Counted from the first letter of the stretch, positions 5,952 through 59,855 are shown. The stretch is DNA of 64,000 nt from Paludibacteraceae bacterium (GCA_017508305.1 JAFVZF010000119.1:34-64033); one strand, 5' to 3'. The notes: generated by a model not told the origin, from the letters alone. Numbers and translations are program-made.

Positions 5952-7172
5952 CTACACATTTAGTTTTTTCGTTAATCTTTCTGCAACAATATCACGGGTA
6001 ATTTCCAATTTCTCTATTTTTTCAGAGGGTATGGAGTACATGTAATCCATCACCACCGACTCGGTAAGCGAACGCAAACCACGTGCCCCCAGTTTGTATT
6101 CAATGGCTTTGTCGACGATATAATCCAATGCTTCGTTTGTAAACGATAAATCAACTCCATCCATGGCAAATAATTTTACGTATTGTTTGATGATAGAGTT
6201 TTTGGGTTCTACTAAAATGCGTCGCAAGGCCTCCCTATTAAGGGGATCCAAATAGGTTAAAATAGGAAGTCGACCGATAATTTCCGGAATCAAACCAAAC
6301 GATTTTAAATCTTGTGGGGCAATGTATTGCAACAAATTATCGCGGTCTATTTTATGCACTTCTTTGGCAGCCGAATAGCCTACAGTCTTGGTGTTTAGTC
6401 GGTTGGCAATTCTTTTTTCGATGCCATCAAATGCGCCTCCACAGATAAACAGAATATTTTGCGTATTGATCGGAATGAGTTTTTGCTCCGGATGCTTGCG
6501 TCCCCCTTGTGGAGGTACGTTTACAATAGAGCCTTCCAATAGTTTAAGCAATCCTTGTTGTACTCCTTCGCCACTCACATCACATGTAATGGAAGGATTA
6601 TCGCTTTTACGGGCTATTTTGTCAATTTCGTCGATAAATACAATGCCCCTTTCGGCGGCTTCCACATTATAATCTGCCACCTGCAATAGGCGCGTTAGGA
6701 TGCTTTCGATGTCTTCGCCAACATAGCCGGCCTCGGTCAAAACGGTTGCATCGACAATGGTAAAAGGAACGTGCAATTTTTTGGCAATGGTTCTTGCTAA
6801 CAGTGTCTTTCCGGTACCGGTAGAACCTACCATGATGACATTGGATTTTTCAATCTCAACCTCGTCGCCCATGTCCTTTTGCAACAAGCGTTTGTAATGG
6901 TTATACACCACCACACTCAGGCTCTTTTTGGCGTTGTCTTGACCAATTACATATTGGTCTAAAAATGCCTTTATTTCTTTGGGCTTAGGCAACTCGTCCA
7001 TGCTGAGCGAGAAGCTGTTTTTACCACGCTGTTTGAGCGTCTCACGCACCATTTCGTGGGCACTTTCGGCGCATTCGTTGCAAATATTGCCGTTTAACCC
7101 TGTCATGAGCATCGCTACTTCGCGTTCGCTACGCCCGCAAAAGCTGCACCTTTGTTCGCTATTTTTGCTCAT
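5952..7172 (-). CDS. clpX: ATP-dependent Clp protease ATP-binding subunit ClpX
   Basis: 406 aa. N-terminal zinc finger CSFCGR...CNEC and Walker A GSTGTGKT. Its start overlaps the clpP stop by 1 nt. Confidence 0.96.
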
Positions 7173-7843
7173 TATTTGTTTGCTTTAATCAACACCTCGT
7201 CTATCATGCCGTATTCTTTGGCCTCTTGGGCAGTCATCCAATAGTCGCGGTCGGAATCTTTTTCGATGCGTTCAAATGGATTGCCAGAGTGGTCGGCAAT
7301 GATGGTGTACAATTCTTTCTTTAGTTTCTGAATTTCGCGGGCAGTAATTTCGATATCCGAAGCTTGTCCCTGCGCTCCGCCCATGGGTTGATGAATCATG
7401 ATGCGCGAGTGCTTTAGTGCCGAACGTTTGCCTTTTGCCCCGGCAGTTAGCAACACGGCACCCATAGAAGCTGCCATGCCGGTGCAAATGGTGGCAACAT
7501 CGCTGCTAATAAATTGCATGGTGTCGTAGATACCCAATCCGGCATATACCGAACCACCCGGGGTGTTGAGGTAGATGGAAATATCCTTGCCGGGATCGGC
7601 AGAATCCAAATACAATAGCTGTGCCTGAATCACATTGGCGGTGTAATCATCTACTTGTGTTCCCAAAAAGATGATACGGTCCATCATTAGGCGTGAAAAA
7701 ACGTCCATTTGTGCTACATTGAGTTGGCGCTCCTCGATAATGGTGGGCGAAATGTAGCTGCTGGTAATGTCCATGTATTGGTCCAAAGCCAATCCATTCA
7801 TGCCCAGATGTTTGGTCGCGTACTTTCTAAATTCGTTGTTCAT
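7172..7843 (-). CDS. clpP: ATP-dependent Clp protease proteolytic subunit ClpP
   Basis: 223 aa. Motifs [21 protein letters not shown] (active-site Ser context) and IMIHQP. Confidence 0.96.
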
Positions 7844-7849
7844 ATGTTG

Positions 7850-7912
7850 TTGGTTATTTGGTTATTTGGTTATTTGGTTATTCGATTCACCGATTCACCG
7901 TCGCGTAGCGAC
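7850..7912. repeat. 8-bp-periodic word array (GGTTATTT x3, then GATTCACC x2) plus a small GTCGC-GTA-GCGAC hairpin, directly upstream of clpP
   Basis: Read directly: ttggttatttggttatttggttatttggttattcgattcaccgattcaccgtcgcgtagcgac. Confidence 0.85.
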
Positions 7913-7914: not shown

Positions 7915-8508
7915 TTAGAATTCTTTCTGCATAAATAGTCGGGGAAGGTTACAGCCAATAAAGTTGCCTATTATCGCCCAAAACCATGCACCCAACAAAG
8001 GCAAGGTAAATTTGCCGTGAAATAGGGCGGCTGCATAATAAAATGCGTCGGCTACGCAGTGAGGAAGCCCGCATAAAATAAAAACAGGCACTCCAAAAAG
8101 CAAGGGCCAATAATGTTTTTGGCGTGCTCCATACACGGCTAAGGTCATAATCATGCCTGTTCCAACCGAGGTCATAATCAAACCATGCCACGAAGCGTTT
8201 AATCGAGCATCCAAGATGGCTTGTAGGTTGGTAAGAACGGTGTCGTTGCTCACGTAATAAGCAATCCAGGCAGCAAAGGCGCATCCCACGGCGTTAAGCA
8301 AAATCATGGGTACAAGTTTCCACATTTCTTTTAGTGGTAAAAAACCAGATTTTCCGGTATACAGTTGTGCTCCGCACATGACCACGCAAAGTAGTCCAAA
8401 AGCAAATAGTACAGCTCCGGCTATACCTCCAACGCGCAAATATACCAATCCGCCGGTTCCTATGAGTAGTCCGGCAAAAATAGACATAGAAATAAATTGT
8501 TTTGTCAT
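7915..8508 (-). CDS. Formate/nitrite transporter (FNT) family-like membrane protein, short form
   Basis: 197 aa and polytopic. LLCVVMCGAQLYTGK and LPHCVADAFY resemble the two FNT signature regions. Confidence 0.55.
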   Translation of the reverse strand: MTKQFISMSIFAGLLIGTGGLVYLRVGGIAGAVLFAFGLLCVVMCGAQLYTGKSGFLPLKEMWKLVPMILLNAVGCAFAAWIAYYVSNDTVLTNLQAILDARLNASWHGLIMTSVGTGMIMTLAVYGARQKHYWPLLFGVPVFILCGLPHCVADAFYYAAALFHGKFTLPLLGAWFWAIIGNFIGCNLPRLFMQKEF

Positions 8509-21377: not shown

Positions 21378-21478
21378 TCACCTCATCACCAAATAACCAA
21401 AAGTTGCGATTAGGCGATTAAACGATTAGGCGTGAGCGAAGCGAGCAAATAAACGACTAAACGACTAAACGACTAAAC
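21378..21478. repeat. Word arrays (CACC/AAATAACC, CGATTAGG/CGATTAAA, AAACGACT x3) flanking a degenerate core fragment (gcgtgagcgaagcgagc)
   Basis: Read directly. It ends 8 nt before the ATG at 21486. Confidence 0.8.
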
Positions 21479-29865: not shown

Positions 29866-30098
29866 AGTATATGATTATTTAGGTTTATACGTTTGTAAAT
29901 AGGCGTTGTTTAAGCCGATAAATCGGACAAAATTACTATTTTTTTTGCAAATAATAACAATAATCCTATCTAATTAACAGAAAAACAGCACAAATATTGT
30001 ATAATCACCCTAAAAATGGTACATTTGTTCTTTGTATTTTTTTATTGAGTCGGGAGAATAATTTCTCCTCTCTCCTTTATCAATTCTCCTCTAATTCA

Positions 30099-32714
30099 AT
30101 GGCAAAGCAGGCAGAAACGCCCATGATGGCGCATTTTTACGAGATGAAAAAACAGCACCCCGATGCGGTGTTGCTGTATCGATGTGGCGACTTTTACGAA
30201 ACGTACGGAGACGATGCGGTGTTGGCTTCTCAACTATTGGGCATTTCGCTTACCTATCGTAGCAAAAGCTCGCCCAACCCTATCAGTATGGCAGGTTTTC
30301 CTTTTCATGCGCTCGATAATTACTTGCCAAAGTTAGTGCGTGCCGGTCATAGAGTGGCCATTTGCGATCAATTAGAAGACCCTAAACTTTCCAAAACCAA
30401 GTTGGTAAAGCGTGGCATTACCGAGTTGGTAACCCCCGGTATTTCGTACAACGATCAGCTGTTGGACGGAAAATCCAACAACTTTTTGTGTGCCATTCAT
30501 GCGCACAAATCGTCTGTAGGCGTATCATTCTTAGATGTGTCTACCGGTGAGTTTTTAGTGGCGCAAGGCACTATATCGTATATAGCCAAACTAATGGGCA
30601 GTTTTGCTCCTAAAGAAATATTATACGCTCCGGGCAAAGAAACCATTGTAGAACAGTTGGCAGAACCCGCTATCAGCAGGTTTAAGATGGACGATTGGGT
30701 GTTTACTCTCGATGCGGCGCAAGGAAGGCTTTACAAACAGTTTGAGGTAAAGAGCCTAAAAGGTTTTGGCATAGAGGCAATGAACGAGGCGATTGTTGCT
30801 GCGGGGGCAGTATTGTTCTACTTGGACCAAACCCAGCACTTACAAACTTCGCACATTAACCGCATCAGTCGGGTGGCAGAAAACAACTTTGTGTGGTTGG
30901 ATAAATTTACCATTCGCAATTTGGAACTTTTTGGTAGCAACTACGGCGATGGCAAATCGTTTGTCGATGTGCTGGATAGTACGAAAACCCCCATGGGTGC
31001 TCGCTTGTTGCGTCGATGGGTCGCTTTCCCACTCAAAAATGTGTCTGCCATTGTTGGCAGACAAGACATTGTAGAAACATTTTTTAGAGAGCCCGAATTA
31101 AAGTCGTTGCTTTTAGCCCAGTTGCCTTTAATAGGCGATATGGAACGTTTGGTATCCAAACTTTCGGCGGGACGCATCAATCCACGCGAGGTGGTACTTA
31201 TCAAAACGGCATTGTTTGCCATTGAAATCATTCAGAAACAGTGTGCGTTGTCCCAATGTGAGGTATTGCAGCAGATGGGTCAAAAATTGCAACTTTGCAC
31301 GCAAGTGCGCGACCAAATAGATAGTTGGGTGGAGATAGACCCTCCTATGGCGGTAAATAAAGGGGGTGTTATTAAAGCAGGAGTCGATGCCGAACTGGAC
31401 GAATACCGTCGGTTGGCATACTCGGGCAAGGATTATTTGCTACAAATGCAGCAACGTGAGGCAGAAGCTACCGGCATTAGCAGCCTTAAAATAAGCTATA
31501 ACAATGTATTTGGCTACTATATTGAGGTGCGCAACACGCACAAGGATGCTGTGCCCGACACGTGGATACGCAAGCAAACCTTGGTCAATGCCGAACGTTA
31601 CATTACCCCCGAACTCAAAGAATACGAAGAAAAAATATTAGGAGCCGAAGAACACATTCTCTCCATAGAAAGCAGGCTATTTGCGCAACTTTTGCAGGCA
31701 TTGTTGCAGCATACGCAAGCATTGCAGACCGATGCAGAAATAGTGGCACAATTGGACGTATTGAGCAATTTTGCCGTCATTGCACAAGCCAATAACTACC
31801 ATCGTCCCATTATCTCCGATAGCGATGTGTTGGATATAAAAGAAGGTAGACATCCGGTTATCGAAAAACAAATGCCTGTTGGCGAGGCATACATCCCCAA
31901 CGATGTGTATTTAGATACATCGTCGCAACAAATCATTATCATTACTGGTCCGAACATGGCAGGTAAGTCGGCTCTATTAAGGCAAACAGCACTGATTACA
32001 TTGATGGCGCAAATGGGCAGTTTTGTGCCGGCAAGCAGTGCGCACATCGGCGTGGTGGATAAGATTTTTACCCGTGTAGGGGCAGGCGATAATATATCGA
32101 TGGGAGAGAGTACATTTATGGTCGAGATGAACGAGGCTTCCAGCATTCTTAATAACCTGTCGGAGCGTAGTTTGGTGTTATTTGACGAGTTGGGCAGGGG
32201 TACTTCTACCTACGATGGCATATCGTTGGCATGGGCGATAGTCGAATACATACACGAACATACCTCGCACAAGGCACGTACGCTGTTTGCTACCCACTAC
32301 CACGAGCTCAACGAGATGGAAAAGAGTTTTGCCCGCATTAAAAACTTTCACATTGCGGTAAAAGAGGTGGATGGAAAGGTAATATTTTTGCGTAAACTAT
32401 GGCAGGGAGGTAGCGAACACAGTTTTGGTATTCATGTGGCAAAATTGGCGGGCATGCCCAAAAGTGTGCTGCAACGTGCCAATCAGGTACTATCTCAACT
32501 CGAAGCTCAAAATCAACGCGATGCCATTAGCAAACCCTTACAAGGATTGGCGCAGAGCCGAGAGGGGTATCAACTTAGCCTATTTCAATTGGACGATCCT
32601 GTATTGGCATCCATTCGCGACGAGATTAAAAACGTAGATATTAACAACTTAACGCCCATCGAGGCACTAAATAAGTTAAACGAAATAAAGAAAATCATCA
32701 CCGGAAAATCGTAA
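30099..32714 (+). CDS. mutS: DNA mismatch repair protein MutS
   Basis: ATG at 30099 gives [40 protein letters not shown]. Walker A GPNMAGKS, then [12 protein letters not shown]. The ORF-track TTG start at 29997 adds a repeat-derived leader. Confidence 0.95.
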
Positions 32715-32755: not shown

Positions 32756-32773
32756 CCAAAGATATGAAAGAGC

Positions 32774-32893
32774 GTACCAAATAGCAAAGCATCCCATACG
32801 GTCCCTGAGCCTGTCAAAGGGCCCTACCAAATAGCAAAGCATCCCATACGGTCCCTGAGCTTGTCGAAGGGCCCGTACAAATTACAAACCATC
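32774..32893. repeat. Tandem 50-bp direct repeat (2.4 copies); each full unit ends in an S-type stem-loop (GGTCCC-TGAGCYTGTCRAA-GGGCC)
   Basis: Unit 32774-32823 and unit 32824-32873 differ at 4 of 50 positions (92% identity). A decayed third partial unit follows. Confidence 0.9.
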
Positions 32894-32907: not shown

Positions 32908-33165
32908 ATGGAAACAAAAGCTTACATGTACATTTTATTGTGCGCAGACGGAAGTTACTATACTGGTAGTACCACCAATTTAGATATAAGAATAGCGCAA
33001 CACTTATCAGGTGAAGGCTCTAATTATACCAGAAAACATAAACCAATAAAATTACTCTACACAGAAGAATACGATAGTATTGAGGATGCATTTTTTAGAG
33101 AGAAACAAGTACAAGGTTGGAGTAGAAGAAAAAAAGAGGCGTTAATCTGTGGAGAGTGGAAGTAG
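32908..33165 (+). CDS. GIY-YIG nuclease family protein (stand-alone URI domain, COG2827-like)
   Basis: 85 aa: YMYILLCADGSYYTGSTTNLDIRIAQH...EEYDSIEDAFFREKQVQGWSRRKK. The GIY, YIG, R and E/N positions are recognisable. Confidence 0.88.
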   Translation: METKAYMYILLCADGSYYTGSTTNLDIRIAQHLSGEGSNYTRKHKPIKLLYTEEYDSIEDAFFREKQVQGWSRRKKEALICGEWK

Positions 33166-33185: not shown

Positions 33186-33390
33186 GGCATAATCAATGCT
33201 GGCATTTCGACAAGCTCAATGACCGCATTGCTTTGCAATCATATTGCATAATTTTTCGGTCCCTGAGCCTGTCGAATTTTGCGAGTAAGTGAGAGCAATG
33301 ATAAGCTTGCTTAATCATTGCCGAACGAGAGCAACTTATTACATGATTTTAGGCATCGGCTCAGCATAATCCATGTAAACATGGTTTCTG
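33186..33390. repeat. Repeat nest: an inverted S stem-loop, a truncated S unit, an inverted H-core copy and a further hairpin fragment
   Basis: 33201-33226 is the reverse complement of an S unit. 33258-33276 is cggtccctgagcctgtcgaa. The reverse complement of 33281-33335 matches 47057-47110 closely (gcaatgat...atcattgc hairpin). Confidence 0.85.
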
Positions 33391-35828: not shown

Positions 35829-35992
35829 TTACTCAAAGCTTCGCTTTTCGTGAAGTTGCTTTCGTTAGCTTCGCTCAAGTTGCTCACGCTCGGCATAATC
35901 AATGCAAACATTGCTTCTGCTCTCGCTTAATCGCAACAGTCGGCATAATCAATGTAAACATTGCTTCTGCTCTCACTTAATCGCAACTTTTG
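35829..35992. repeat. H-core repeat element whose hairpin-containing half is tandemly duplicated (35891-35940 and 35941-35987)
   Basis: ...gttgctcacgct followed by two copies of cggcataatcaatg(c/t)aaacattgcttctgctct(c/t)(g/a)cttaatcgcaac. Confidence 0.9.
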
Positions 35993-37228: not shown

Positions 37229-37384
37229 GATGAATCGACTAATCGACTAACCGACTAATCGAAGGTTGTTATTAAAAGGGTGAAAATAGCTTGCTCACAT
37301 ATAAGTGGTGATTCGGTGATACGGTGATTCGGTGATTCGGAAGTTATCAACTCACCGCCTCACCAAATAACCAACTCACCGATT
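37229..37384. repeat. Two word arrays (CGACTAAT-type at 37233-37262; GGTGATTC- and CACC-type at 37307-37384) filling the OYE / 5alpha-reductase spacer
   Basis: gaatcgactaatcgactaaccgactaatcga ... ggtgattcggtgatacggtgattcggtgattcgg ... ctcaccgcctcaccaaataaccaactcaccgatt. Confidence 0.9.
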
Positions 37385-38150: not shown

Positions 38151-38159
38151 ATTATTTTG

Positions 38160-38266
38160 ACTAATCGACTAATCGACTAACCGACCAATCGAGAATTATG
38201 TTATGAATAAAATTATTCGCATTCGCTCATGCCTTTTATTATTAAAATTATTCGCATTCGCTCATG
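38160..38266. repeat. Word array (CGACTAAT-type, 38160-38193) followed by a 22-bp unit, aaattattcgcattcgctcatg, repeated twice
   Basis: Read directly. The units lie at 38210-38231 and 38245-38266. Confidence 0.8.
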
Positions 38267-39266: not shown

Positions 39267-39329
39267 GTCGAAAGTCAAAAGTTAAAAGTAAAACGACCTT
39301 CGACCTTTGACTTTCGACTTTTGACCTTT
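39267..39329 (-). terminator. Long imperfect hairpin built from inverted TCGAAAGTCAAAAG-type words, followed by a T-run on the minus strand; likely polA terminator
   Basis: The minus strand reads aaaggtcaaaaGTCGAAAGTCAAAGG...ACTTTTGACTTTCGACatttttt immediately after the polA stop. Confidence 0.55.
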
Positions 39330-42241
39330 CAATGTGCTTCCAACCAATTTGTGCCAATTCCGCAGTCTGCAATAAGTGGAACGTTCAGTTTTATCGCTTG
39401 TTGCATTTCGTGGCAAACAATCTGTTTTACTTGTTCCAATTCGTCGGGATAAACATTAAAATTAAGTTCGTCGTGCACCTGTAAAATCATTTGCGATTTA
39501 AGATTTGACTTTTTAAATGCTTGGTCGATAGCAATCATCGCTACCTTGATAATATCGGCTGCACTGCCCTGAATGGGGGCATTGATGGCGTTTCTTTCGG
39601 CAAAACCACGCACAAAACTATTGCCCGAGTTAATGTCGGGCAGGTAGCGTTTTCTGCCCCATAGTGTTTGTACATATCCTACTTGTCGTGCCTGCTCAAT
39701 GCAATTGTCCATGTAGGTTTTTATTTGTGGATAGGTCTCAAAATAGCCGTCGATAAGCTGTTTGGCTTCGCTGCGCTGTATTTGTAAGCGCTCGCTAAGT
39801 CCAAATACCGAAATGCCGTAAATAATGCCAAAATTGGCGGTCTTGGCTTTTCGACGCATATCGGCAGTAACTTGGTCGATGGGTACTTTGTATATTTTGG
39901 CAGCAGTGGCAGCATGAATATCGCCATCCATGTTAAAGGCCTCAATCATGGCACTATCGCCACTAAGGTGCGCCATGATGCGCAATTCTATTTGCGAATA
40001 GTCGGCAGAGAAGAACAGGCAACCCTCGTCGGCAATAAAACATTTTCTTATTTCTTTGCCCATATCGTCGCGCACCGGAATGTTTTGCAAGTTGGGATTG
40101 CTCGAACTGAGTCGCCCTGTAGCCGTTACCGCTTGGTTGTACGAGGTATGAATTTTGCCGGTCGTAGGGTTTACCAACAGTGGCAGTGCCTCAATGTAGG
40201 TGCTCAACAATTTTTTGATACCCCGATAATCCAATATTTTTCCCACAACGGGGTGCTTGTGGCGTAACCCCTCCAACACCTCTTCGGAGGTAATGTATTG
40301 TCCGGTTTTGGTTTTTTTGGCTTTGTCTACAATCTTAAGCCTGTCAAAAAGCACTTCGCCCACTTGTTTGGCAGAGCTTATATTAAATGTACAGCCCGAT
40401 AGGGCATATACCTCTTGTTCGATGGCAGAGAGTTGCTCATGCAAATGTTGCGACGAGGCTTTCAACGCATTGGAATCGATTCTAACCCCTGCCATTTCCA
40501 TGTTTACCAAGGTACGCAATAGGGGCATCTCTAACTCGTAAAAGAGTTTTTCCATGCCCGCCTGCTGTAGCTCCTTGGCTAATATCTCTTTGAGTTGTAA
40601 GGTAATGTCGGCATCCTCGGCGGCATATTCTGCTACCTGTTCAATGGGTATTTGGTCGATGCTTTTTTTGTTTTTGCCTTTTCCACCTACCAAATCGTCG
40701 TAGGCGATGGTTTGGTAGTGCAAGTAAATCTCTGCCAAGTAATCCATGCCGTGTCGCAATTCCGGTTGCAACAAGTAGTGTGCCAGCATGGTGTCAAAAA
40801 GCGGCCCGTTTACCTCTATGCCGTAGCGTTTAAGCAGCAGTAAATCGAACTTACAATTTTGTCCTATCTTGAGGGTGTTTTCATTTTCAAAAGCAGGACG
40901 CAAGTAGGAAAGTATGTTTTTGCTATTTTGTTCATTAACAGGTATATAATACGCCTCGTGGGCTTTCCATGCAAACGACAGTCCCACCAACTTATCGCTC
41001 ATCACCTGCAAACCGGTGGTTTCGGTATCAAAGCAAAAAGCCGATTGCGCCTTTAAAACTTCTGCCCATTGGGGCAATTGCTCCTCTGTAATAAGCTGGT
41101 AGTTATGCGCTGTGGTATGGATATTGCTGTGCTCTGACGATGCTGTAACTTGGTGTTTAGTCGTTGATTCGTTTAGTTGTTTAGACGATTCTGGACATTC
41201 CGATTCGTCATTATCCAATCCTGCAAACAAGTCCATCATGCCGTCATCTTTGGTAATTCGGTGATTTGTTTGTTTAGTCGTTGAGTCGTTTAGTCGTTTA
41301 GTCGATTCATCAATCCCGCTATTCATCGATTCACCGATTAGTCGATTCCCCGATATTTCTCCTTTCTCCTTTATCAACTCTCCTTTCTGATTGCGAAGCA
41401 GGCTCCTAAATTCCAACTCGCTAAAAATGGTACGCAATGCTTCGGTGTCAGGTTGCTGCCTTAACATTGCATTTTCGTCGAAAACAAGGGGTACATCCGT
41501 TTTAATGGTCGCCAAAAATTGCGAAAACTTAATTTGGTCGATGTTGTTTTCTATCTTAGTTTTAAGCGCTCCTTTTAGTAAATGCGTGTTGCCGAGCAGG
41601 TAGTCGATGCTACCAAATTCTTGCAACAATTTGACCGCTGTTTTTTCGCCTACGCCGGGACAACCGGGAATGTTATCGCTACTGTCGCCCATAAGTCCTA
41701 GCAAATCAATTACTTGCAGTTGGTCTTTGAGTCCGTATTTTGCCGTTACTTCTGCAACACCCATTACCTCGTACCCGCCGTTGTGTCGAGGACGGTACAT
41801 AAAAATATGTTCGTCTACCAGTTGGCCGTAATCTTTATCGGGTGTCAGCATAAATACCTCAAATCCTTTGGTGGCGGCCTGTTTTGCCATGGTTCCAATC
41901 ACATCGTCCGCCTCAAACCCTTTTACCTCAAAAATAGGAATGCGATACGCATTCAGTACCTCTTTGATAATGGGCACCGAAAGCCGAATATCTTCTGGCG
42001 TTTGCTCTCGTCCTGCCTTGTAGGCATCGTATGCTTCGTGTCTGAAAGTAGGTCCCGAAGGGTCGAAAGCAACCCCGATATGGGTGGGTTGTTCGCGCTT
42101 TAGTACATCTTCGAGCGTATTGACAAAGCCCAAAATAGCCGAAGTGTTTAGCCCCTTGGAGTTAATACGTGGGGCTTTTATAAAGGCAAAATACGCTCTA
42201 TATATTAGGGCGTAGGCATCCAAAAGAAATAATTTTTTCAT
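39329..42241 (-). CDS. polA: DNA polymerase I, with a repeat-derived, low-complexity linker between the 5'-nuclease and 3'-5' exonuclease domains
   Basis: 970 aa. 5'-3' exonuclease N-terminus (LLDAYALIYRAYFA...), FDTETTGL (exo I), and the polymerase motifs DYSQIELR and QVHDEL. Confidence 0.95.
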   Translation of the reverse strand: MKKLFLLDAYALIYRAYFAFIKAPRINSKGLNTSAILGFVNTLEDVLKREQPTHIGVAFDPSGPTFRHEAYDAYKAGREQTPEDIRLSVPIIKEVLNAYRIPIFEVKGFEADDVIGTMAKQAATKGFEVFMLTPDKDYGQLVDEHIFMYRPRHNGGYEVMGVAEVTAKYGLKDQLQVIDLLGLMGDSSDNIPGCPGVGEKTAVKLLQEFGSIDYLLGNTHLLKGALKTKIENNIDQIKFSQFLATIKTDVPLVFDENAMLRQQPDTEALRTIFSELEFRSLLRNQKGELIKEKGEISGNRLIGESMNSGIDESTKRLNDSTTKQTNHRITKDDGMMDLFAGLDNDESECPESSKQLNESTTKHQVTASSEHSNIHTTAHNYQLITEEQLPQWAEVLKAQSAFCFDTETTGLQVMSDKLVGLSFAWKAHEAYYIPVNEQNSKNILSYLRPAFENENTLKIGQNCKFDLLLLKRYGIEVNGPLFDTMLAHYLLQPELRHGMDYLAEIYLHYQTIAYDDLVGGKGKNKKSIDQIPIEQVAEYAAEDADITLQLKEILAKELQQAGMEKLFYELEMPLLRTLVNMEMAGVRIDSNALKASSQHLHEQLSAIEQEVYALSGCTFNISSAKQVGEVLFDRLKIVDKAKKTKTGQYITSEEVLEGLRHKHPVVGKILDYRGIKKLLSTYIEALPLLVNPTTGKIHTSYNQAVTATGRLSSSNPNLQNIPVRDDMGKEIRKCFIADEGCLFFSADYSQIELRIMAHLSGDSAMIEAFNMDGDIHAATAAKIYKVPIDQVTADMRRKAKTANFGIIYGISVFGLSERLQIQRSEAKQLIDGYFETYPQIKTYMDNCIEQARQVGYVQTLWGRKRYLPDINSGNSFVRGFAERNAINAPIQGSAADIIKVAMIAIDQAFKKSNLKSQMILQVHDELNFNVYPDELEQVKQIVCHEMQQAIKLNVPLIADCGIGTNWLEAH
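41150..41390. repeat. Word arrays (GTCGTTTA, GATTCACC and TCTCCT types) lying inside the polA reading frame
   Basis: ggtgtttagtcgttgattcgtttagttgtttagacgattc ... gtttagtcgttgagtcgtttagtcgtttagtcgattcatc ... cgattcaccgattagtcgattcc ... tttctcctttctcctttatcaactctcctttc. Confidence 0.85.
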
Positions 42242-42361: not shown

Positions 42362-43288
42362 ATGTCCACAGAAAAAAATAAACGTTCTCAAAAAGGGAAA
42401 GTAGCAGGTTACTTAATCGAAAAATCAAACTTGGTAAAATTGGTTATTTTTACCGGCCTATTTTCGTTGGTTTTTGTCAATTTATACAAACCGTTTTCGT
42501 CCGATAGGTGGATAGATATTTCTTCTACGCAATATTTTCTATACTCTTGTGTCATTGTTTTTATTGGTATCGCCGTTATTGCAGTGAGTCGATATTTGAT
42601 GAACCTGTTTGTGAGACGCTACTCGCTCAACAACATCGAATACGCTATTTGGGTAGTGTTAGAGTTGGTTATTTTGTCGGGATTTTATACCCTGTATGTG
42701 CTTTGGATTCGGTCCGATTTGGAGTTTTGGTCGATAGAAGATGCCGTTATCGCTTTTAGAGATATCAATATCAACACCTTTTTGGTGGTGTTTTTTCCGT
42801 ATCTTATTTCGTGGCTCTACTTTGCCTACGACGATAAAAATAAGAAAATCAGAGAATTAGAAAAACGTGGTTTGGTGCGCAATGGTCCTTCGGTGTTGCA
42901 TTTTAACGACGAAAAAGGAGGACAGCGTCTTTCGGTGGCATTTGAGTCGGTTATTTACCTCGAATCGGCAGATAACTACATCGAAATCAATTACCTGTTG
43001 CAAGGCAAAATGGAAAAGTTTATGTTGCGCAACTCGATGAAACGTATCGAGTTAGAGCTGACAGATACGGCTATTAAGCGATGCCATCGTTCTTATATGG
43101 TTAATTTTGAGCATGTTACCTCTTTGCATAAGGACGGCGACGATTTCTTCTTAGAGTTGGATGTACCTCAAACCAAACGCATAACCGTTTCCAAAACCTA
43201 CGTACAAAAAGCGACCGAAGCATTTACACACTTCGGCCGCCGTAAAGCTATTTCGTTACACGAGGTTACTTATAGAGATAACGCTTGA
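42362..43288 (+). CDS. Membrane-anchored LytTR-family DNA-binding protein
   Basis: 308 aa with about four N-terminal TM helices. The C-terminal LytTR domain reads VIYLESADNYIEINYLL...LRNSMKRIELEL...CHRSYMVNFEHV. Confidence 0.85.
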   Translation: MSTEKNKRSQKGKVAGYLIEKSNLVKLVIFTGLFSLVFVNLYKPFSSDRWIDISSTQYFLYSCVIVFIGIAVIAVSRYLMNLFVRRYSLNNIEYAIWVVLELVILSGFYTLYVLWIRSDLEFWSIEDAVIAFRDININTFLVVFFPYLISWLYFAYDDKNKKIRELEKRGLVRNGPSVLHFNDEKGGQRLSVAFESVIYLESADNYIEINYLLQGKMEKFMLRNSMKRIELELTDTAIKRCHRSYMVNFEHVTSLHKDGDDFFLELDVPQTKRITVSKTYVQKATEAFTHFGRRKAISLHEVTYRDNA

Positions 43289-44906
43289 TACTGCGTTTAG
43301 GTGTTTTCTCAAATTCTTCTGCCACTACTTCTACTGCCGATATTTGGCAGAATTTAGGCAACAATCTGTTTACGTGAATACGCATTAGTTCCATTTCGTC
43401 GGCTACGGTTTTACCGGCTTGCTCTATGGCTTTAGTGTCGGCATATACCAATGCTACCAATTTATCGTTACGGCTTACCAATACGCTTTCGACAACGTAA
43501 TCCATGTTGTTTACCTTGTCCTCAATTTCTTCGGGATAGATATTTTGTCCCGAAGGGCCCAAAATCATGCTCTTGTTACGACCACGGATAAATACGTTGC
43601 CCTCTTTGTCCAAGATGCCTAAGTCGCCGGTGCGCATCCAACCGTCCGAAGTAAAGATGGCGGTTGTTGCTTCGGGATTTTTGTAGTAGCCCAACATCAT
43701 GTTGTCGCCTTTTACCAAGATTTCGCCCACTTGCTTGGTGGGGTCTAACGAGTCGATGGTTAGTTGCATACGGTCTACTACACGACCGCACGAACGTTGT
43801 ACAAATTTGGTCCAAACCGAGTAAGCCAACAAAGGAGCACATTCGGTCATGCCGTATCCTACGCAGTAGGGAAATTTAATTTGTTTCAAGCATTTTTCTA
43901 CCTCGCGGTTAAGGGCAGCACCACCAATAATAAGGTATCTAAGCTCACCACCAAAGGCAGAAAGCAGCTGTTGGTGTACTTTTTTGCGAATAATGCTGCT
44001 AATGCCCGGTACGTACCACAAAACGCGCATCAATGGTTTTTTGATAACCGGGAAGATTTTTCCTTTAAAGATTTTTTCGACCACCAAAGGTACCGTTAAA
44101 ATCATGTAAGGATGTACTTCAGAGAAAGCTTTCATCAACACTTGAGGCGAGGGGGTTTTGCCAAGGAAGTAAACGTGACAACCACCTGCCAACTGGTACA
44201 AGAACTCGAAAGTAAGACCAAACATGTGTGCCAAAGGAAGCATCGAAACCATGCTCCAACCGGCTTTGTTAGGAATATTGTCTTGTCCAAATTCTACGTT
44301 AGAGCTGATGTTTCTAAAGCTAAGTACCACCCCTTTTGGATCGCCGGTACTACCCGATGTGTAGTTGATGATGGCGGGTTTTTCCATGTTGTCAGTGGGG
44401 TAGTTTACATCGTTGGCGCTAAATCCGTTGGGGTAAGTTTCGGCAAATAATTGATCCCAATTTTTAAATGCTTTTGCTCCTTTTTCGGTTTTGCTAAAGT
44501 ATAGTTCTTGTCCGTTTTGGCAAACGATAGCCTCCAATTGCGACATGGCATTGTTGTCCAGACCGCTGTATACTTGGTCGCCTACTAAAAATAGTTTGGC
44601 ATCCGAGTGCTTCACAAGATAGTGAATGCTATCCGCGTGAAAGGCGTCCAAGATAGATACTGCCACTGCCTCATAGCTGATGGTAGCCAAAAAACAGGTA
44701 GCCCAATAGGTACTGTTTCTGCCGCACAAAGCAATTTTATCGCCTTTGTTAATGCCTAACTCTTTAAACAGCACGTGCCAACGGGCAATTTGGGTAGCCA
44801 TATCGCCGTAACTGTCTGTTTTTTTCTCCACATAATCGGAGATGGCAGGTTGGTCCCAATCGCGTTTGATGGTAGCCTGCAAGTAGTCAAATAGATGTTT
44901 TGCCAT
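43266..44906 (-). CDS. AMP-dependent synthetase/ligase (long-chain fatty acid--CoA ligase-like)
   Basis: 546 aa. AMP-binding motifs YTSGSTGDPKGVVLS, GYGMTE and TGDLG. Its 3' end overlaps the LytTR gene by 23 nt (convergent). Confidence 0.88.
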   Translation of the reverse strand: MAKHLFDYLQATIKRDWDQPAISDYVEKKTDSYGDMATQIARWHVLFKELGINKGDKIALCGRNSTYWATCFLATISYEAVAVSILDAFHADSIHYLVKHSDAKLFLVGDQVYSGLDNNAMSQLEAIVCQNGQELYFSKTEKGAKAFKNWDQLFAETYPNGFSANDVNYPTDNMEKPAIINYTSGSTGDPKGVVLSFRNISSNVEFGQDNIPNKAGWSMVSMLPLAHMFGLTFEFLYQLAGGCHVYFLGKTPSPQVLMKAFSEVHPYMILTVPLVVEKIFKGKIFPVIKKPLMRVLWYVPGISSIIRKKVHQQLLSAFGGELRYLIIGGAALNREVEKCLKQIKFPYCVGYGMTECAPLLAYSVWTKFVQRSCGRVVDRMQLTIDSLDPTKQVGEILVKGDNMMLGYYKNPEATTAIFTSDGWMRTGDLGILDKEGNVFIRGRNKSMILGPSGQNIYPEEIEDKVNNMDYVVESVLVSRNDKLVALVYADTKAIEQAGKTVADEMELMRIHVNRLLPKFCQISAVEVVAEEFEKTPKRSIKRYLYK

Positions 44907-44909: not shown

Positions 44910-45055
44910 TGTTTATGTGTTTATGCGTTTAGTCGTTTAGTCGTTTAGTCGTTTATGTATTCAAAGCTTCGCTTTTCATGATTTCAGGCTGCGCCTTGGC
45001 ATAACCAAACAAGTTTGCTTCTGCGCTCGGCTTGCACTGAAATTCGATTCGGTTT
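44910..45055. repeat. Word array (GTCGTTTA x3) plus a degenerate H-core-like element
   Basis: gcgtttagtcgtttagtcgtttagtcgtttatg, then ttcaaagcttcgcttttcatgatttcaggctgcgccttggcataaccaaacaagtttgcttctgcgctcggc. Compare 35829-35900. Confidence 0.7.
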
Positions 45056-46894: not shown

Positions 46895-47030
46895 GAATTA
46901 GTTTATAGGGTGCTTTTTGCGTTGTGCTTGTGCTCAAAATCCTCATTTACGTTTAGTAAACTCCGGTTTTTCGCACTGCGCACGCCTTAAAATCCCACCT
47001 CTAAACATAATTCTTATTAAAATAATCGCA

Positions 47031-47146
47031 TTACTCGGGCTTCGCCCTCGTGATTTTGCTCACGCTCGGCAATGATTAAGCAAGCTTATCATTGCTCTCG
47101 CTTACTCGCAAAATTCACCGCATCACCGAATAACCGCATCACCAAC
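47031..47146. repeat. Complete H-core element (47031-47111) followed by a word array (47112-47146)
   Basis: ttactcgggcttcgccctcgtgattttgctcacgctcggCAATGATTAAGCaaGCTTATCATTGctctcgcttactcgcaa, then aattcaccgcatcaccgaataaccgcatcaccaac. Confidence 0.9.
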
Positions 47147-49895: not shown

Positions 49896-50028
49896 AATAA
49901 TTTTTTTTATTCGTTTTACTTGGTGCAGATAATTCCCATCGTCTAAAGGCTAAAAAAGACGTTTTTCGGTCATTATCAGACACTTACACTAAATAGAATA
50001 ATGATCGGACTGCAAAGATACAATAAAT

Positions 50029-50147
50029 AAATGAGAAATGAGAAAGGAGAAAGGAGATTTTTTTATTTTTTTTGTTGAAAGGCAGAAAGTTGCACTCGCT
50101 ACGCAGGTATCGACTCACCGACTCACCGCATCACCGAATCACCAATT
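50029..50147. repeat. Word arrays (GAGAAATG/GAGAAAGG type at 50029-50058; CGACTCAC/CGCATCAC type at 50110-50147)
   Basis: aaatgagaaatgagaaaggagaaaggagatt ... cgactcaccgactcaccgcatcaccgaatcaccaatt. The second array abuts the ispG stop. Confidence 0.85.
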
Positions 50148-51675: not shown

Positions 51676-51860
51676 ATTGTTTAGTTGTTTATTCGGGCTT
51701 TGCCCTCATGAAGTTGCTCACGCTCGGCATAACAAATAAATTTGTTCTGCTCTCGCTTAATCGCAACTTTAGTCGTTTAGTCGTTTGGCGATGAGCTATG
51801 ATTGATATGTTGCACTGCGCAATTGCATCATCGCATCACCGCATCACCGCATAGCCAATT
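51676..51860. repeat. Word array + H-core (51688-51767) + word arrays, filling the spacer and entering the 3' end of the next gene
   Basis: attgtttagttgtttattcgggctttgccctcatgaagttgctcacgctcggcatAACAAAtaaaTTTGTTctgctctcgcttaatcgcaactttagtcgtttagtcgtttgg ... catcgcatcaccgcatcaccgcatagcc. Confidence 0.9.
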
Positions 51861-52751
51861 ATTTAATTTGGTCGATAATTTGGCAGCGCCTTGCCGGTTT
51901 AAGTGGTCGGCATCGTAAAAATCATCGTCGGTAAAGGTACTATCTTTTAAGTAATTTAAATAGGTTACGTGTTCATATTTTTTATCCAACTGCTCGCAAA
52001 TGCGTTGCGTCTTGCCCCACATGGTCGAATCCAATAAGGTGTAGTAGCTTGGATGGGTAGGAGTTGTGAGCAAAATGACGTTGATGCCCTTTTGTTGGCA
52101 GGTTTCGATAATCTGAGTAAGTCGTTGTTGGTTAGGCAGGGTGCTTTGCAGGCTGTTACGGCTGTGGTGAGCAACCGTGTGCATGGCCTCTTGCTTAAAG
52201 TTGGGTTTTTGGTCGCCCCATTGGCGTTTGTAGCCCCAGCCCAACGAGTCGGCAACGGCAAAATTAAGCGGCTTGCCCATTTGTTTGGCAATGCCCAAGT
52301 ATTTTTCTTTGTTGATAAGCTCTAAATGGTAAATGGGGTTAATGGGGTGGTAGGTACAGCCCATATAGATGTGGTATCCCTTTACATGTGCCCAAGCGCC
52401 GCCATCTTCCATCTCGCTAAAAAGCGAAAAGTAAGAAACAGGCAAAATAATGGTTTGCAGGCTGCTGCATTTGTTTATGTATCGATGTAGCAGGTACTGG
52501 TCGTATTGGATGCTTTGCGAGGGAAAACCAAGATTGTAGGTCTTTTTATCAAAACAATCGGGACGAATGCCGTAAAAACCATGCGAAGAACCAAAGGTAA
52601 GCACTTGTACCGAAGGGGCATTTGCCTGCATCCAAGCCTCTTTGTTTCGATAATCGTTGTCGATACTGCGCAAAACCACCTCGATGCCGGTAAGCAACAG
52701 CAACATCGGCAGTATATAGGTAAGCATCGTTTTCAGTAAAAATCGTTTCAT
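51828..52751 (-). CDS. Hypothetical membrane-anchored protein, SGNH/DltD-like; probable partner of the upstream MBOAT acyltransferase
   Basis: 307 aa with an N-terminal TM helix. It has a GSSHGFYG (GDS-like) block and a late DADHLNRQGA (DxxH-like) block. Its start lies 7 nt after the MBOAT stop. Confidence 0.45.
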   Translation of the reverse strand: MKRFLLKTMLTYILPMLLLLTGIEVVLRSIDNDYRNKEAWMQANAPSVQVLTFGSSHGFYGIRPDCFDKKTYNLGFPSQSIQYDQYLLHRYINKCSSLQTIILPVSYFSLFSEMEDGGAWAHVKGYHIYMGCTYHPINPIYHLELINKEKYLGIAKQMGKPLNFAVADSLGWGYKRQWGDQKPNFKQEAMHTVAHHSRNSLQSTLPNQQRLTQIIETCQQKGINVILLTTPTHPSYYTLLDSTMWGKTQRICEQLDKKYEHVTYLNYLKDSTFTDDDFYDADHLNRQGAAKLSTKLNNWLCGDAVMR

Positions 52752-54278: not shown

Positions 54279-55764
54279 CTATCAGTGTGGTTAGTTTCAT
54301 AGAGTTAGAACCTTTGATGAGCAATGTTTTGCCCGATAGAGGATGCGCTTGCAACCATTCTTTAAACAGAGAGGTCGATGCAAAGCGTGTGCCGATACCT
54401 GTTGTGGTTTCAAAATTTTTGCCCAATAAGTATGCCTCGCCAATGCCCAGCTGCTCCAATAATGACACTACTTTTTGGTGTTCGGTAGCGCTGTCGTCGC
54501 CCAATTCAAACATATCGCCCAAAATAACGGCTTTGCTATCGGTTTGAATCAAAGCAAAGTTGCGCAGTGCCGCTTCCATGCTGGTTGGATTGGCGTTGTA
54601 GGCATCTACAATTAGGGTGTTGCGCTCGGTTTTGGTTAGTTGCGAGCGGTTGTTTTGAGGGGTATAATCGCTCAATGCTTTGACAATTTGCGCAGCAGGT
54701 ACGCCAAAGTAGTGTCCCACGCAGGCTGCCGATAGCATGTTGCTCACGTTGTAGCTACCAATTAATTGGCTATTAACGTGGTAATTGTTGCCGTCGATGT
54801 TTAGGTCGATGTTTACAAAAGGAGTGCAGCTTACCACTTTGCCGTTAACGGGCAGGGCAGGGTTGGTGCCGTATAATTCGGTCACTGAGCTTGTCGAAGT
54901 GCCCGAATTATACGATTCATCGTTTTCTATGTTAGCAAGCATTTCTTTTAGGTGTGCATTATCGGCATCGACAAACACCGTTTTGCCACGGCTTAGCAGG
55001 TTGTGGTAAAGTTCTGCCTTGGTGTTTTTAACGCCCTCAAAACTACCAAAACCTGCCAAATGCGCCTTGCCCACGTTGGTAATAAGCCCTGCATCGGGCA
55101 TTACGATGTTGGCTAAAAACGCAATTTCGCCAGGATGGTTGGCACCTATTTCTATCACTGCCATGTTGTGCTCTTTGGTAAGGCGCAGTAGGGTTAAAGG
55201 CACGCCAATGTGGTTGTTAAAGTTGCCAAGGGTATAGAGTACGTTGTATTTTTTTGCCAATACAGCAGCCACCAACTCTTTGGTGGTGGTTTTGCCGTTG
55301 GTGCCCGTTATGCCTACGATGGGCGTGCCCAATACTTTGCGGTGGTGTGCTGCCAATTGTTGCAGTGCCACAAGGGTGTCTTCTACGTAGATATAGGGTG
55401 ATTCGGTGATTTGGTGATTTGGTGAGTCGATGTTCTGTCCCTGAGCTTGTCGAAGGGTCGATTCACCGATTACTCGGGCTTCGCCCTCATGAAGTTGCTC
55501 ACGCTCGGCATAATCAATGTAAACATTGCTTCTGCTCTCGCTTAATCGCAACTTTAGTCGATTAGTCGATTCATCGGAAGTTAACAACTCTTTGCGCGAG
55601 GTAAGCACGTACTTGCACCCCATCTCTACGGCTTTTTCGGCAAATTCGTTGCCATCAAAGTTTTCGCCCTTAAGGCACACAAACAAATTGCCCGCTTGGC
55701 AGGCACGACTATCGGTGCACACCCCGTTGCATGCCAAATAAGCTTGGTATATAGTTTCGATCAT
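54268..55764 (-). CDS. murF: UDP-N-acetylmuramoyl-tripeptide--D-alanyl-D-alanine ligase carrying in-frame repeat-element insertions
   Basis: 498 aa. CTDSRACQAGNLFVCLKGENFDGNEF, P-loop GITGTNGKTTTKE, IEIGANHPGEI and DAYNANPTSM. Residues about 62-123 are encoded by a composite repeat. Confidence 0.9.
   Translation of the reverse strand: MIETIYQAYLACNGVCTDSRACQAGNLFVCLKGENFDGNEFAEKAVEMGCKYVLTSRKELLTSDESTNRLKLRLSESRSNVYIDYAEREQLHEGEARVIGESTLRQAQGQNIDSPNHQITESPYIYVEDTLVALQQLAAHHRKVLGTPIVGITGTNGKTTTKELVAAVLAKKYNVLYTLGNFNNHIGVPLTLLRLTKEHNMAVIEIGANHPGEIAFLANIVMPDAGLITNVGKAHLAGFGSFEGVKNTKAELYHNLLSRGKTVFVDADNAHLKEMLANIENDESYNSGTSTSSVTELYGTNPALPVNGKVVSCTPFVNIDLNIDGNNYHVNSQLIGSYNVSNMLSAACVGHYFGVPAAQIVKALSDYTPQNNRSQLTKTERNTLIVDAYNANPTSMEAALRNFALIQTDSKAVILGDMFELGDDSATEHQKVVSLLEQLGIGEAYLLGKNFETTTGIGTRFASTSLFKEWLQAHPLSGKTLLIKGSNSMKLTTLIDAL
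54872..54912. repeat. S-type stem-loop inside murF: a perfect 10-bp outer stem (TATAATTCGG/CCGAATTATA) enclosing TCAC-TGAGCTTGTCGAA-GTGC
   Basis: Read directly. Same loop as the copies at 32800-32823, 32850-32873, 33201-33226 (inverted), 55437-55457 and 59802-59840. Confidence 0.85.
55397..55576. repeat. Composite element inside murF: word array (55397-55432), S unit (55437-55457), words, H-core (55470-55552), word array (55553-55576)
   Basis: The H-core differs only slightly from the intergenic copies at 35881-35940 and 51688-51767. The segment that looks inserted spans 186 bp (62 codons), so the murF frame is preserved. Confidence 0.9.
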
Positions 55765-55852: not shown

Positions 55853-55939
55853 GCAAAAGTGTGAAAAACATAGTGATTTCGCCTACTTTTTCACAGGTTT
55901 GCTGTGATTTTTGATAGGAAAGGTGTGAAAAAGTGGTAT
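55853..55939. repeat. Left copy of an 87-bp direct repeat bracketing the ATPase gene
   Basis: gcaaaagtgtgaaaaacatagtgatttcgcctactttttcacaggtttgctgtgatttttgataggaaaggtgtgaaaaagtggtat. It ends 1 nt before the ATPase stop codon and contains GTGTGAAAAA twice plus its inverted copy TTTTTCACAG. Confidence 0.9.
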
Positions 55940-57361: not shown

Positions 57362-57420
57362 AGCTGAAGTTTCTTTTAGGCAAATATAAACAAAAATATA
57401 AGAAAGTGAACAAATTTGCG

Positions 57421-57507
57421 GCAAAAGTGTGAAAAACCATGTGATTTTTCCTACTTTTTCACAGGTTTGCTGTGGTTTTTGATAGGAAAGGTGTGAAAAA
57501 GTGGTAT
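57421..57507. repeat. Right copy of the 87-bp direct repeat (upstream of the ATPase gene)
   Basis: gcaaaagtgtgaaaaaccatgtgatttttcctactttttcacaggtttgctgtggtttttgataggaaaggtgtgaaaaagtggtat. Only a handful of mismatches to 55853-55939. Confidence 0.9.
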
Positions 57508-57630
57508 AAACAGGCAATAAAAGATCAACGGCTGTAACTTATCTAAGCTTACATAAATGTTAAACATATATTGAAATTTGTGAATGAAGGCTATTTTAAA
57601 TATTTTTGTACTATAAAATACTGTAATAAT

Positions 57631-58460: not shown

Positions 58461-58494
58461 AATAAAAAAATCAATCCGGTCAAATAGGTAAAAT

Positions 58495-58525
58495 AAAGGT
58501 TCAGAAGAAATGCTTCTGAACCTTT
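58495..58525. terminator. Bidirectional rho-independent terminator between the convergent TM-protein and LRR genes
   Basis: AAAGGTTCAGAAG-aaatg-CTTCTGAACCTTT. Confidence 0.8.
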
Positions 58526-58560
58526 ATTACATAACTTATTAAGGAAACTTTTACGTAAAC

Positions 58561-59840: not shown

Positions 59841-59855
59841 ACACCGTATCATCTT

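Follow-up and report, generated by a model that had tools for sequence, protein, structure and literature searches.

How does the linker of a DNA polymerase come to be written in the words of intergenic repeats? The question is raised by the gene for DNA polymerase I (polA) in a 64,000-nucleotide stretch from a Paludibacteraceae bacterium (GCA_017508305.1 JAFVZF010000119.1:34-64033), hereafter the window, in which positions are counted from its first letter. A first-pass annotation of this DNA had proposed that the linker between the 5'-nuclease and 3'-5' exonuclease domains is made of repeat words read in frame, and that selfish or slippage-prone DNA had invaded a tolerant site. The evidence presented here makes it probable that this linker is a tether in which only a clamp-like motif is conserved, and that it has been colonised by a genome-wide, modular family of short repeats in the Candidatus Enterocola/Paludibacteraceae lineage. 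The modules of the family are tandem arrays of 8-nt (some 7-nt) words, a hairpin of ~25 nt (H1), and a structured core element of ~90 nt; the octamer arrays are one module of this composite family and not a stand-alone phenomenon.

Repeat words in the reading frame of polA

The Pfam domains of PolA are the 5'-nuclease (residues 3-266), the 3'-5' exonuclease (residues 385-559), and the polymerase (residues 591-968), and the interval 41150-41390 lies between the first two. The gene and the parts of its linker are as follows.

39329..42241, minus strand: polA, the host gene, encoding DNA polymerase I of 970 amino acids (open reading frame (ORF) plus Pfam 5_3_exonuc_N, 5_3_exonuc, DNA_pol_A_exo1, and DNA_pol_A)
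41352..41389, minus strand: heptamer array of the AAAGGAG type, in frame, 5' of the octamers; peptide QKGELIKEKGEI
41248..41351, minus strand: 13 octamer words of the GACTAATC, GGTGAATC, GACTAAAC, and CACCGAAT types; peptide GNRLIGESMNSGIDESTKRLNDSTTKQTNHRITK
41216..41251, minus strand: non-repeat linker core KDDGMMDLFAGL, PolA residues 331-342
41155..41209, minus strand: second in-frame word block; peptide DESECPESSKQLNESTTKH
41135..41386, minus strand: predicted disordered inter-domain linker, residues 286-369 (AlphaFold2)

The ~85 codons of the linker comprise a 7-nt array, an in-phase run of 13 8-nt words, and another block of words, with the non-repeat KDDGMMDLFAGL between the two sets of words. 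Tandem Repeats Finder (TRF) resolves three arrays of period 8 in this interval (41155-41184, 41272-41304, and 41321-41354), together with one of period 7 (41356-41388). Along the sense strand, from 41351 to 41248, the 13 octamers keep a single 8-nt phase: GGGGAATC GACTAATC GGTGAATC GATGAATA GCGGGATT GATGAATC GACTAAAC GACTAAAC GACTCAAC GACTAAAC AAACAAAT CACCGAAT TACCAAAG. The words of the second block (41155-41186) are GTCTAAAC AACTAAAC GAATCAAC GACTAAAC. Translation and Pfam bear out the in-frame words, linker peptides, and domain borders given in the first-pass annotation; its description of the whole interval as word arrays holds for the flanks but not for the middle (41216-41251), where the conserved sequence is not a repeat.

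The same words are found in intergenic DNA, as had also been claimed. GTCGTTTAG occurs nine times in the window versus 0.48 expected, and CGATTCACC six times versus 0.29 expected. A total of 92 of the 233 9-mers of the linker are shared with non-coding DNA of the window, compared to 18.0 +/- 6.4 for equally long coding segments (z ~11.6). When a strict array is defined by at least 21 of 24 self-matches at a given lag, the window contains nine arrays at lag 8, one at lag 7, and none at lags 6, 9, and 10, and six of the nine period-8 arrays are located in non-coding DNA, which makes up 11% of the window. The AAAGGAG heptamer is also tandem in the intergenic spacer at 50026-50059, and the heptamer array of polA is 93% identical to an array in the 5' leader of mutS (30061-30090; repeat family D18). 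The mutS leader array is of the TCTCCTT type, the complementary-strand counterpart of the first array of the polA linker; the ORF called there (29997..32714, TTG start) overcalls the MutS N-terminus, the true start probably being the MAKQ methionine near 30099.

Were the array a perfect (GACTAAAC)n or (GACTAATC)n repeat, each of the six frames would meet a stop codon within three units. In the first polA block, the unit expected to read GAC TAA reads GAC TCA (GACTCAAC), and in the second block it reads GAA TCA (GAATCAAC); the stop-free units encode the peptides ESTKRLNDSTTKQ and ESSKQLNESTTKH. All three sense frames of (GAATCACC)n are open, and the predicted peptide ...NHRITESP... matches the one observed in PolA. 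With TAA changed to TCA and the frames open, the polA arrays look like intergenic arrays that have been filtered for an open frame.

A predicted disordered tether around a clamp-like motif

We modelled PolA with AlphaFold2 on the basis of 27 sequences. Residues 286-369 have predicted local distance difference test (pLDDT) values below 50, with block means of 24-31, and the only secondary structure within them is a three-residue helix (336-338) at MDLF. The 3'-5' exonuclease, the polymerase, and most of the 5'-nuclease were modelled confidently, a few short low-confidence segments excepted. The repeat-derived residues are predicted to lie in a disordered tether, in line with the tolerant linker suggested by the first-pass annotation.

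KDDGMMDLFAGL is invariant in all alleles of the clade, while its flanks vary on both sides. In the sister group, this position is occupied by PVQLSLFDMF or PKQLSLFDLF, which contain the canonical beta-clamp motif QLSLF, and KDDGMMDLFAGL is, judging from this alignment, a likely beta-clamp-binding motif. Other Bacteroidales have Q..LF at the QLSLF position, and the clade of the window is without the Q and the first L but retains DLF.

Linker variation among relatives and strains

The closest genomes are Candidatus Enterocola/Paludibacteraceae metagenome-assembled genomes (MAGs) from animal guts, with PolA identities of 75-83%. For the protein comparison, 120 PolA proteins were listed from a large protein collection, and linker length was measured from ELEFR to FDTET.

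13 alleles at least 87% identical to the window (12 of these 92-100%): 109-157 amino acids
Alleles 73-82% identical: 98-169 amino acids
58 proteins of the ~64%-identity sister group: 72-90 amino acids, median 85

Overall, the linkers of the Candidatus Enterocola/Paludibacteraceae clade are 98-169 amino acids long versus 72-90 in the sister group, indicating that the repeat-derived residues are additions. The sister-group linkers are without word peptides. Conservation of the linker in distant Bacteroidota that lack the repeats would have spoken against the invasion proposed in the first-pass annotation, but the array words are absent from the more distant Bacteroidales polA loci.

Linker length also differs between strains, and does so module by module among alleles that are 92-96% identical overall, whose linkers range from 109 to 157 amino acids and are mosaics of modules. 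The linkers of alleles P0016 and P0015 differ by exactly 8 amino acids, which is 24 nt or three octamers. Those of the window and P0014 differ by the seven residues ELIKEKG, which is 21 nt or three heptamers, and DESECPESSKQLNES in the window corresponds to DESTNRQIGESADSVIVESADSGINNSTKRLNES in P0014. Some PolA alleles are separated by a simple tandem duplication (ESADSVIG/ESADSGIN), and other strains have 19 extra residues in the region of the second word block. Among metagenome contigs, one has 12 letters at 41188-41201 replaced by 69 (net +57 nt) and another, from a further divergent strain, has +9/-3 nt in the linker; a metatranscriptome contig with a depth of 33 has +12 nt after 41213. 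Near-identical strains in four metagenome runs showed no linker length variation and no frameshifting indel, and variation in length was seen only in more divergent strains and in database alleles. The frame is open in all PolA proteins retrieved (120 listed).

Relatives carry the core element at this site as well. A full core is present in frame in polA of L004, P0024, P0025, P0027, P0029, P0030, and P0049, and the copy in L005 is internally deleted. Many database PolA alleles have the core in either half of the linker or in both. The L004 linker contains the full ~90-nt element in frame, encoding ANRLKLRLSESRSNVYIDYAEREQLHE..., and the linker of the window has the arrays but no core element by the covariance model (R1) used to score core copies. 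Among PolA alleles P0012-P0024, two N-terminal haplotypes (...HIGVAFDPSGPTFRHEAYDAYKAGREQ... and ...HIAVAFDPAGPTFRHEAFEAYKAQREK...) occur with differing linkers and C-termini, and these combinations suggest homologous recombination between strains within polA.

The polA modules are transcribed, as metatranscriptome contigs cover part of the linker and one RNA contig spans positions 41200-41299, and they would be translated as polar low-complexity peptide. Turnover of the modules between strains is quick and appears to follow two routes. Slippage or unequal recombination among words accounts for the 24-nt and 21-nt steps, and insertion or deletion of hairpin modules inside arrays for the larger differences. 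Selection apparently acts only as a filter, keeping an open frame, a polar peptide, and the clamp-like motif. Hairpin modules are read on the strand that gives a hydrophilic peptide, and the only length changes to persist are divisible by three, those of 24 nt and 21 nt among them. The net effect on the enzyme would be a linker 10-85 residues longer in which the clamp motif is preserved. As for the repeats themselves, a passenger status, neutral or selfish, is most likely.

The arrays might instead be of use to the cell, if their length tuned the spacing between the 5'-nuclease and the Klenow part or access to the clamp, or if 8-nt slippage turned off the polymerase part and freed the 5'-nuclease, with a phase-variable state of repair as the outcome, in the manner of a contingency locus. 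Simple-sequence contingency loci produce phase variation via repeats whose unit is not a multiple of three, in surface or restriction genes. Like them, the linker has 7-8-nt tandem units in a reading frame and strain length polymorphism, which is large even between close strains; its clamp-like motif is retained mid-linker, and one MAG polA is cut at the heptamer array. However, identical neighbouring units in the polA arrays number two at most, and such imperfect coding arrays disfavour frequent slippage. We found neither a long perfect tract nor ON/OFF frameshift variants in polA, and no frameshifted allele is present among the 120 listed proteins. In the truncated MAG copy, the DNA upstream of the cut is unrelated sequence, which is what misassembly at a repeat would produce. 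Further, the hosts are housekeeping genes, and the same modules are present in murF, DinB, CTP synthase, and others, where this logic fails. An adaptive or contingency function is on this evidence improbable, and we favour colonisation by the repeat family, which extends to these other hosts.

The same modules in murF and other genes

In the window, murF (54268-55764, minus strand) contains two in-frame repeat insertions.

55397..55575, minus strand: murF insert 1, consisting of octamer words, a full core, the small hairpin, H1, and octamer words, ~59 amino acids
54874..54934, minus strand: murF insert 2, an H1-type hairpin module in frame, DESYNSGTSTSSVTEL

The peptide of insert 1 is DESTNRLKLRLSESRSNVYIDYAEREQLHEGEARVIGESTLRQAQGQNIDSPNHQITESP, and MurF residues 58-121 (64 residues) replace a 5-residue loop in domain 1 of E. 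coli MurF (1GG4). Among orthologues, L038 shares the insert of the window, L040 carries words plus H1, and L039 carries words alone; L041 and L042 keep only CACCGAATCACC at this site and are without the full insert. In murF of distant Bacteroidota, there is nothing of insert 1. Insert 2 is 72% identical to an intergenic copy at 59803-59863 (family D10), and its site is occupied by other word arrays or composites in L040, L041, and L042. A composite of ~95 nt is nearly identical between site 1 of L040 murF and site 2 of L042 murF, which argues for copying between sites and not purely local growth.

Proteins that contain the core with an open frame include PolA, MurF, DinB, CTP synthase, a GlnRS-like protein, and AAA ATPases. 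The 22 core-encoded residues of a Prevotellaceae DinB are a clean insertion relative to PDB 7yll; they interrupt the little-finger strand region, where tolerance is less obvious. A CTP synthase with the core in a variable loop of the glutaminase domain is ~21 amino acids longer than its closest solved homologue. This variable loop, the 5-residue loop of MurF, and the PolA linker with its pLDDT below 50 are tolerant insertion sites; in housekeeping enzymes other than PolA, the repeat DNA appears to have entered surface loops. The murF-insert peptide matched only 11 tiny ORFs and a MurF fragment in a large protein database, a result that the word index of the search makes uninformative on hosts.

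Structure and distribution of the core element

Five intact cores and approximately three degenerate ones are present in the 64 kb of the window. The intact copies, with their R1 scores, are listed here.

55467..55557, minus strand: core inside murF (78.4 bits, E 7e-22)
47028..47117, minus strand: intergenic core, followed by an array at 47115-47143 (79.5 bits)
51686..51772, minus strand: intergenic core embedded in a GTTTAGTC-type array (76.5 bits)
35852..35942, minus strand: intergenic core, followed in tandem by part of another copy that extends to 35987 (74.2 bits; TRF 50-nt period)
33273..33362, plus strand: intergenic core in the opposite orientation (62 bits)

The core is built of a small GAA-loop hairpin and a long stem, inside which lie two loops that are invariant and an apical hairpin that varies. 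In the orientation in which genes read the core, the invariant loops are UAAGCGAGAGCAG and UGCCGAGCGUGAGC. The closing stem P1 (7-9 bp) occurs in 47 sequence combinations, mostly perfectly paired. In an RNAalifold analysis of 49 copies, one of its pairs is UA in 23, CG in 14, and AU in 11, three other pairs are similar, and the base of the apical stem covaries as well. Single core copies have folding z-scores of -2.2 to -3.5. A search of the whole window against Rfam 15 gave no match at gathering score, and only noise around one core at E <= 10. The H1 hairpin (...CCCTTCGACAAGCTCAGGG...) is read in two frames, as GPSTSSGT or ALRQAQGP, and some linkers of the sister group have it too.

An exact-pattern scan for the two invariant stretches found at least 119 core stretches across Bacteroidales, in Prevotella (Hungate strains included), Bacteroidaceae, Tidjanibacter/Rikenellaceae, Alistipes, Barnesiella, and Paludibacteraceae. 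The core had no match among INPHARED phages and PLSDB plasmids. In IMG/VR, eleven viral or proviral contigs (L237-L247) contain the core, some of them in two to three copies. In L211 and seven other loci, the core is located directly upstream of the same gene, which is acetyltransferase-like by eye and whose N-terminus ORF callers would extend through the core (MLTLGIGQTSLPLLSLNR...).

Arrays flank 26-27% of cores versus 2.4% of random segments. Period 8 is dominant in the Enterocola clade and period 7 elsewhere, and the words are lineage-specific. At junctions within the clade (...GTCGATTA / TTC-hairpin...core...GCAACTTTA / GTCGATTA...), the core lies exactly between two words, and in all 11 of these the element follows a word ending in TTA or TA. 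An element end of ...CTTTA without duplication and a TTA/TTTA (3-4-nt) duplication both fit the junctions, where the periodic flanks mask which of them occurred.

Cores within ORFs are almost always read on the strand opposite to GCTCACGCTCGGCA, giving the peptide [I/S]KREQS...SAEREQ or LSESRSNVYIDYAEREQ. In a first screen, 15 of the 16 cores located in ORFs open for at least 60 amino acids on each side were on one strand; a second count gave orientations of 22 versus 4 inside ORFs and 23 versus 9 between co-directional genes (total 45 versus 13). Stop codons were considered as the cause of the single orientation and rejected, since open frames exist on the other core strand too. Peptide polarity or a strand-specific process accounts better for the bias.

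These findings bear on whether the polA linker is merely an ordinary low-complexity segment, grown by codon-level slippage inside the gene and resembling intergenic arrays by chance or composition. The linker of the window has no core module, and some alleles differ by simple tandem duplications such as ESADSVIG/ESADSGIN, as this explanation would have it. However, the period is 8 nt and not 3, the 13 words stay in one phase across reading frames, the words are identical to those of intergenic arrays, and the same composites and the full intergenic core are present in polA of relatives and in murF, which makes an ordinary linker very unlikely.

The inserted segments might also be removed from the mRNA or the polypeptide, in the manner of an intron or intein. 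In favour of this, the core is conserved and structured, its loops being invariant, and one metatranscriptome contig has a 113-nt skip in the linker. Removal would make an open frame unneeded, yet every allele is open, stop codons have been purged, and well-defined indels come in multiples of three. The modules are read in two frames, as the two H1 peptides illustrate, and no Rfam ribozyme or intron match was found in the window. Beyond the skip, the contig matches poorly, with 7 differences in 43, and resembles the array of another strain, and the RNA contig described above runs through 41200-41299. We consider removal extremely unlikely.

That a metagenome assembler stitched repeats into polA, as contig breaks at the arrays, depth there of 10-40 times baseline, and the seemingly chimeric L006 might suggest, is next to impossible, since contigs of four independent gut metagenome runs span the linker as exact matches with zero differences, indicating that the sequence is real, and more than 50 independently assembled alleles keep the frame. 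The linker is best read, as above, as a real tether colonised by the repeat family. At the GACTAAAC array (41251-41304) in runs X1-X4, X13, X16, X18, and X19, the 10-40-fold depth is relative to flanking polA and is accompanied by many contig ends, indicating that word arrays are highly repeated in these gut metagenomes and fragment their assemblies. In L006 (CALDQH010000097.1, ~2968-3010), the closest MAG, the polA frame starts inside an AAAGGAG array, and the sequence upstream bears no relation to the 5'-nuclease domain, owing either to misassembly at the repeat or to a genuine split of polA.

Other arrays and features of the window

Word arrays fill or border several other spacers of the window, and many of the intergenic arrays run right up to a start or stop codon.

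44910..45046: GTTTAGTC array abutting the start codon of the gene at 43266..44906, plus a degenerate core (R1 26.4 bits)
21406..21478: intergenic arrays GCGATTAG and TAAACGAC, ending 8 nt before the start codon at 21486
7846..7900: arrays TTGGTTAT and CGATTCAC, filling the spacer upstream of clpP (7172..7843), next to the gene at 7915..8508
37233..37380: spacer of three arrays, AATCGACT, GGTGATTC, and CACC-type
38157..38192: GACTAATC array, 7 nt upstream of a start codon
42327..42350: CGCCTAAA / GACTCAAC words in the spacer divergent from polA, 12 nt before the start at 42362; inverted pair I4
50026..50143: AAAGGAG heptamer array and CACCGNNT octamer array after the ispG stop codon
51821..51856: octamer array (GCATCACC type) forming the last codons and TGA stop of the ORF at 51828..52751

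At 32773-32893, a 50-nt unit containing the H1 hairpin is repeated 2.4 times, followed by an ORF for an 85-amino-acid GIY-YIG nuclease (32908-33165) and then two oppositely oriented cores. The GIY-YIG ORF was considered as a mobiliser and rejected, such a neighbour being present at only 1 of 140 cores (1.67 Mb of loci). Elsewhere in the window, conjugative-transposon transfer genes (DUF4133, TraG, TraM, and DUF4138) at ~9200-16600 indicate an integrated conjugative element or a remnant of one. An 87-nt direct repeat (93% identical; 55853-55939 and 57421-57507) flanks an AAA/ATPase_2 gene. The region 56000-60000 is an island of 35-37% GC, also encoding a SocA/Panacea-domain protein and a BspA-type leucine-rich repeat protein, and is probably foreign DNA.

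Relation to known repeat families

Pfam scans of 43 window ORFs recovered no transposase and no candidate REP-associated tyrosine transposase (RAYT), only the tra genes of the conjugative transposon. Nor was an autonomous insertion sequence with a transposase, related to the core as to a miniature inverted-repeat transposable element, present among the window ORFs or at 130 core-bearing loci; the P1 stem closes the core yet the small hairpin lies outside it, hence P1 is not terminal. In aligned copies inspected by eye, no GTAG or CGTC tag stands out at the foot of the stem, as it would in repetitive extragenic palindromic (REP) sequences and REPINs. The features found are those of a class resembling Rickettsia palindromic elements (RPEs): many, mostly intergenic copies, in-frame hosts, and presence or absence among orthologues.

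RPEs are short non-autonomous hairpin repeats located in intergenic DNA and in frame in unrelated, often essential genes (Ogata et al. 2000, as related in PMC10969869 and PMC3733652). The family shares with them polymorphic insertions between relatives, tolerant positions, and the lack of a known encoded transposase. No relation in sequence to RPEs was seen, although no direct comparison was made, and none is expected. The family differs in its hosts, which are free-living gut and rumen Bacteroidales and not an obligate intracellular alphaproteobacterium, in its modular make-up of tandem 7/8-nt word arrays and two hairpin modules, in its turnover among 92-96% identical strains, and in a core that spans several bacterial families. 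The comparison with RPEs drawn in the first-pass annotation is apt, as the same core is in frame in unrelated Bacteroidales proteins.

Some GTAG/CGTC intragenic REPs and RAYT-mobilised REPINs are located in genes, many of which function in replication or repair (Di Nocera et al. 2013, PMC3733652). Like REPs, the elements described here are small palindromic repeats, mostly intergenic, plausibly transcribed, and in some cases inside genes; unlike REPs and REPINs, the core is larger (~90 nt), has invariant internal loops, and has no RAYT-like gene in the window or at the 130 loci. The enterobacterial repetitive intergenic consensus (ERIC) and RU sequences are intergenic repeats that occasionally encode an in-frame peptide (Delihas 2007, PMC2759123). 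The family resembles pneumococcal BOX elements in being modular with a variable number of internal subunits, but subunits of ERIC/RU and BOX are tens of nucleotides and not 7-8, and in-frame insertion in housekeeping enzymes is rare there. The resemblance to RPEs and to REP/ERIC sequences is one of behaviour and not of family membership, as their tag, terminal repeat, and partner gene were not found.

Elements of the IS200/IS605 type transpose as single strands, have hairpin ends with unpaired conserved bases, and insert 3' of a short motif. The core is similar in its covarying stems, conserved unpaired bases, insertion after ...TTA without clear duplication, and strand bias. It differs in that no TnpA (Y1 HUH) gene is present among the window ORFs or at the 130 loci, and its left and right ends are putative; the resemblance is a lead only. 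Covarying stems, invariant loops, motif-specific insertion, and orientation bias fit a single-strand element of this type and an RNA-level function equally. A search of the full-text literature that included core sequences as queries returned no description of the family; subscription journals are mostly outside its coverage, and a prior description is possible.

Several observations count against colonisation of the linker by a mobile repeat family. All-against-all clustering of 1,534 ORFs from the 130 core-bearing loci showed no recurrent enzyme family, the top cluster being an ORF N-terminally extended through the core (eight loci). With no enzyme near the elements, mobility is deduced only from their distribution and their presence or absence in relatives. 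Since the polA linker of the window has no core, its arrays could have grown locally. Arrays frequently adjoin start codons, so they may have a leader role. The strong conservation of the core loops across families, together with the orientation bias between genes, suggests a function at the level of RNA or single-stranded DNA. Finally, the comparative data are almost all MAGs or contigs, and assemblies break at repeats. Of the original proposal that selfish or slippage-prone DNA invaded a tolerant linker, the invasion is upheld by the comparison with relatives, and slippage is joined by module insertion as a contributing route; the repeats may be selfish, although no mobilising enzyme was found.

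We tentatively suggest, with more doubt than for the colonisation of polA itself, that the core is an undescribed Bacteroidales-wide element. It might have the arrays as landing pads or products, be moved by trans-acting machinery, possibly a single-strand HUH enzyme, and be tolerated in one orientation in housekeeping proteins.

Implications

To our knowledge, in-frame colonisation of essential genes by repeats is mainly known from Rickettsia and is usually tied to relaxed selection in intracellular bacteria. Here the same phenomenon is present in abundant free-living Bacteroidales of the gut and rumen, in core enzymes of replication and cell-wall synthesis, and with strain-level turnover within species. 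In practical terms, the repeat sites are hypervariable, PCR-sized strain markers within conserved genes. They are also places where MAG assemblies and gene calls break or become chimeric and where annotation gains spurious small ORFs and N-terminal extensions. The findings raise the questions of what recognises the invariant loops of the core and why 7-8-nt arrays accumulate beside it. The polA linker is a natural experiment on the length of tether that is tolerated around a clamp-binding motif. If the core is indeed a Bacteroidales-wide element of the kind suggested above, the proteomes of gut Bacteroidales would carry a strain-variable layer of repeat-encoded peptides.

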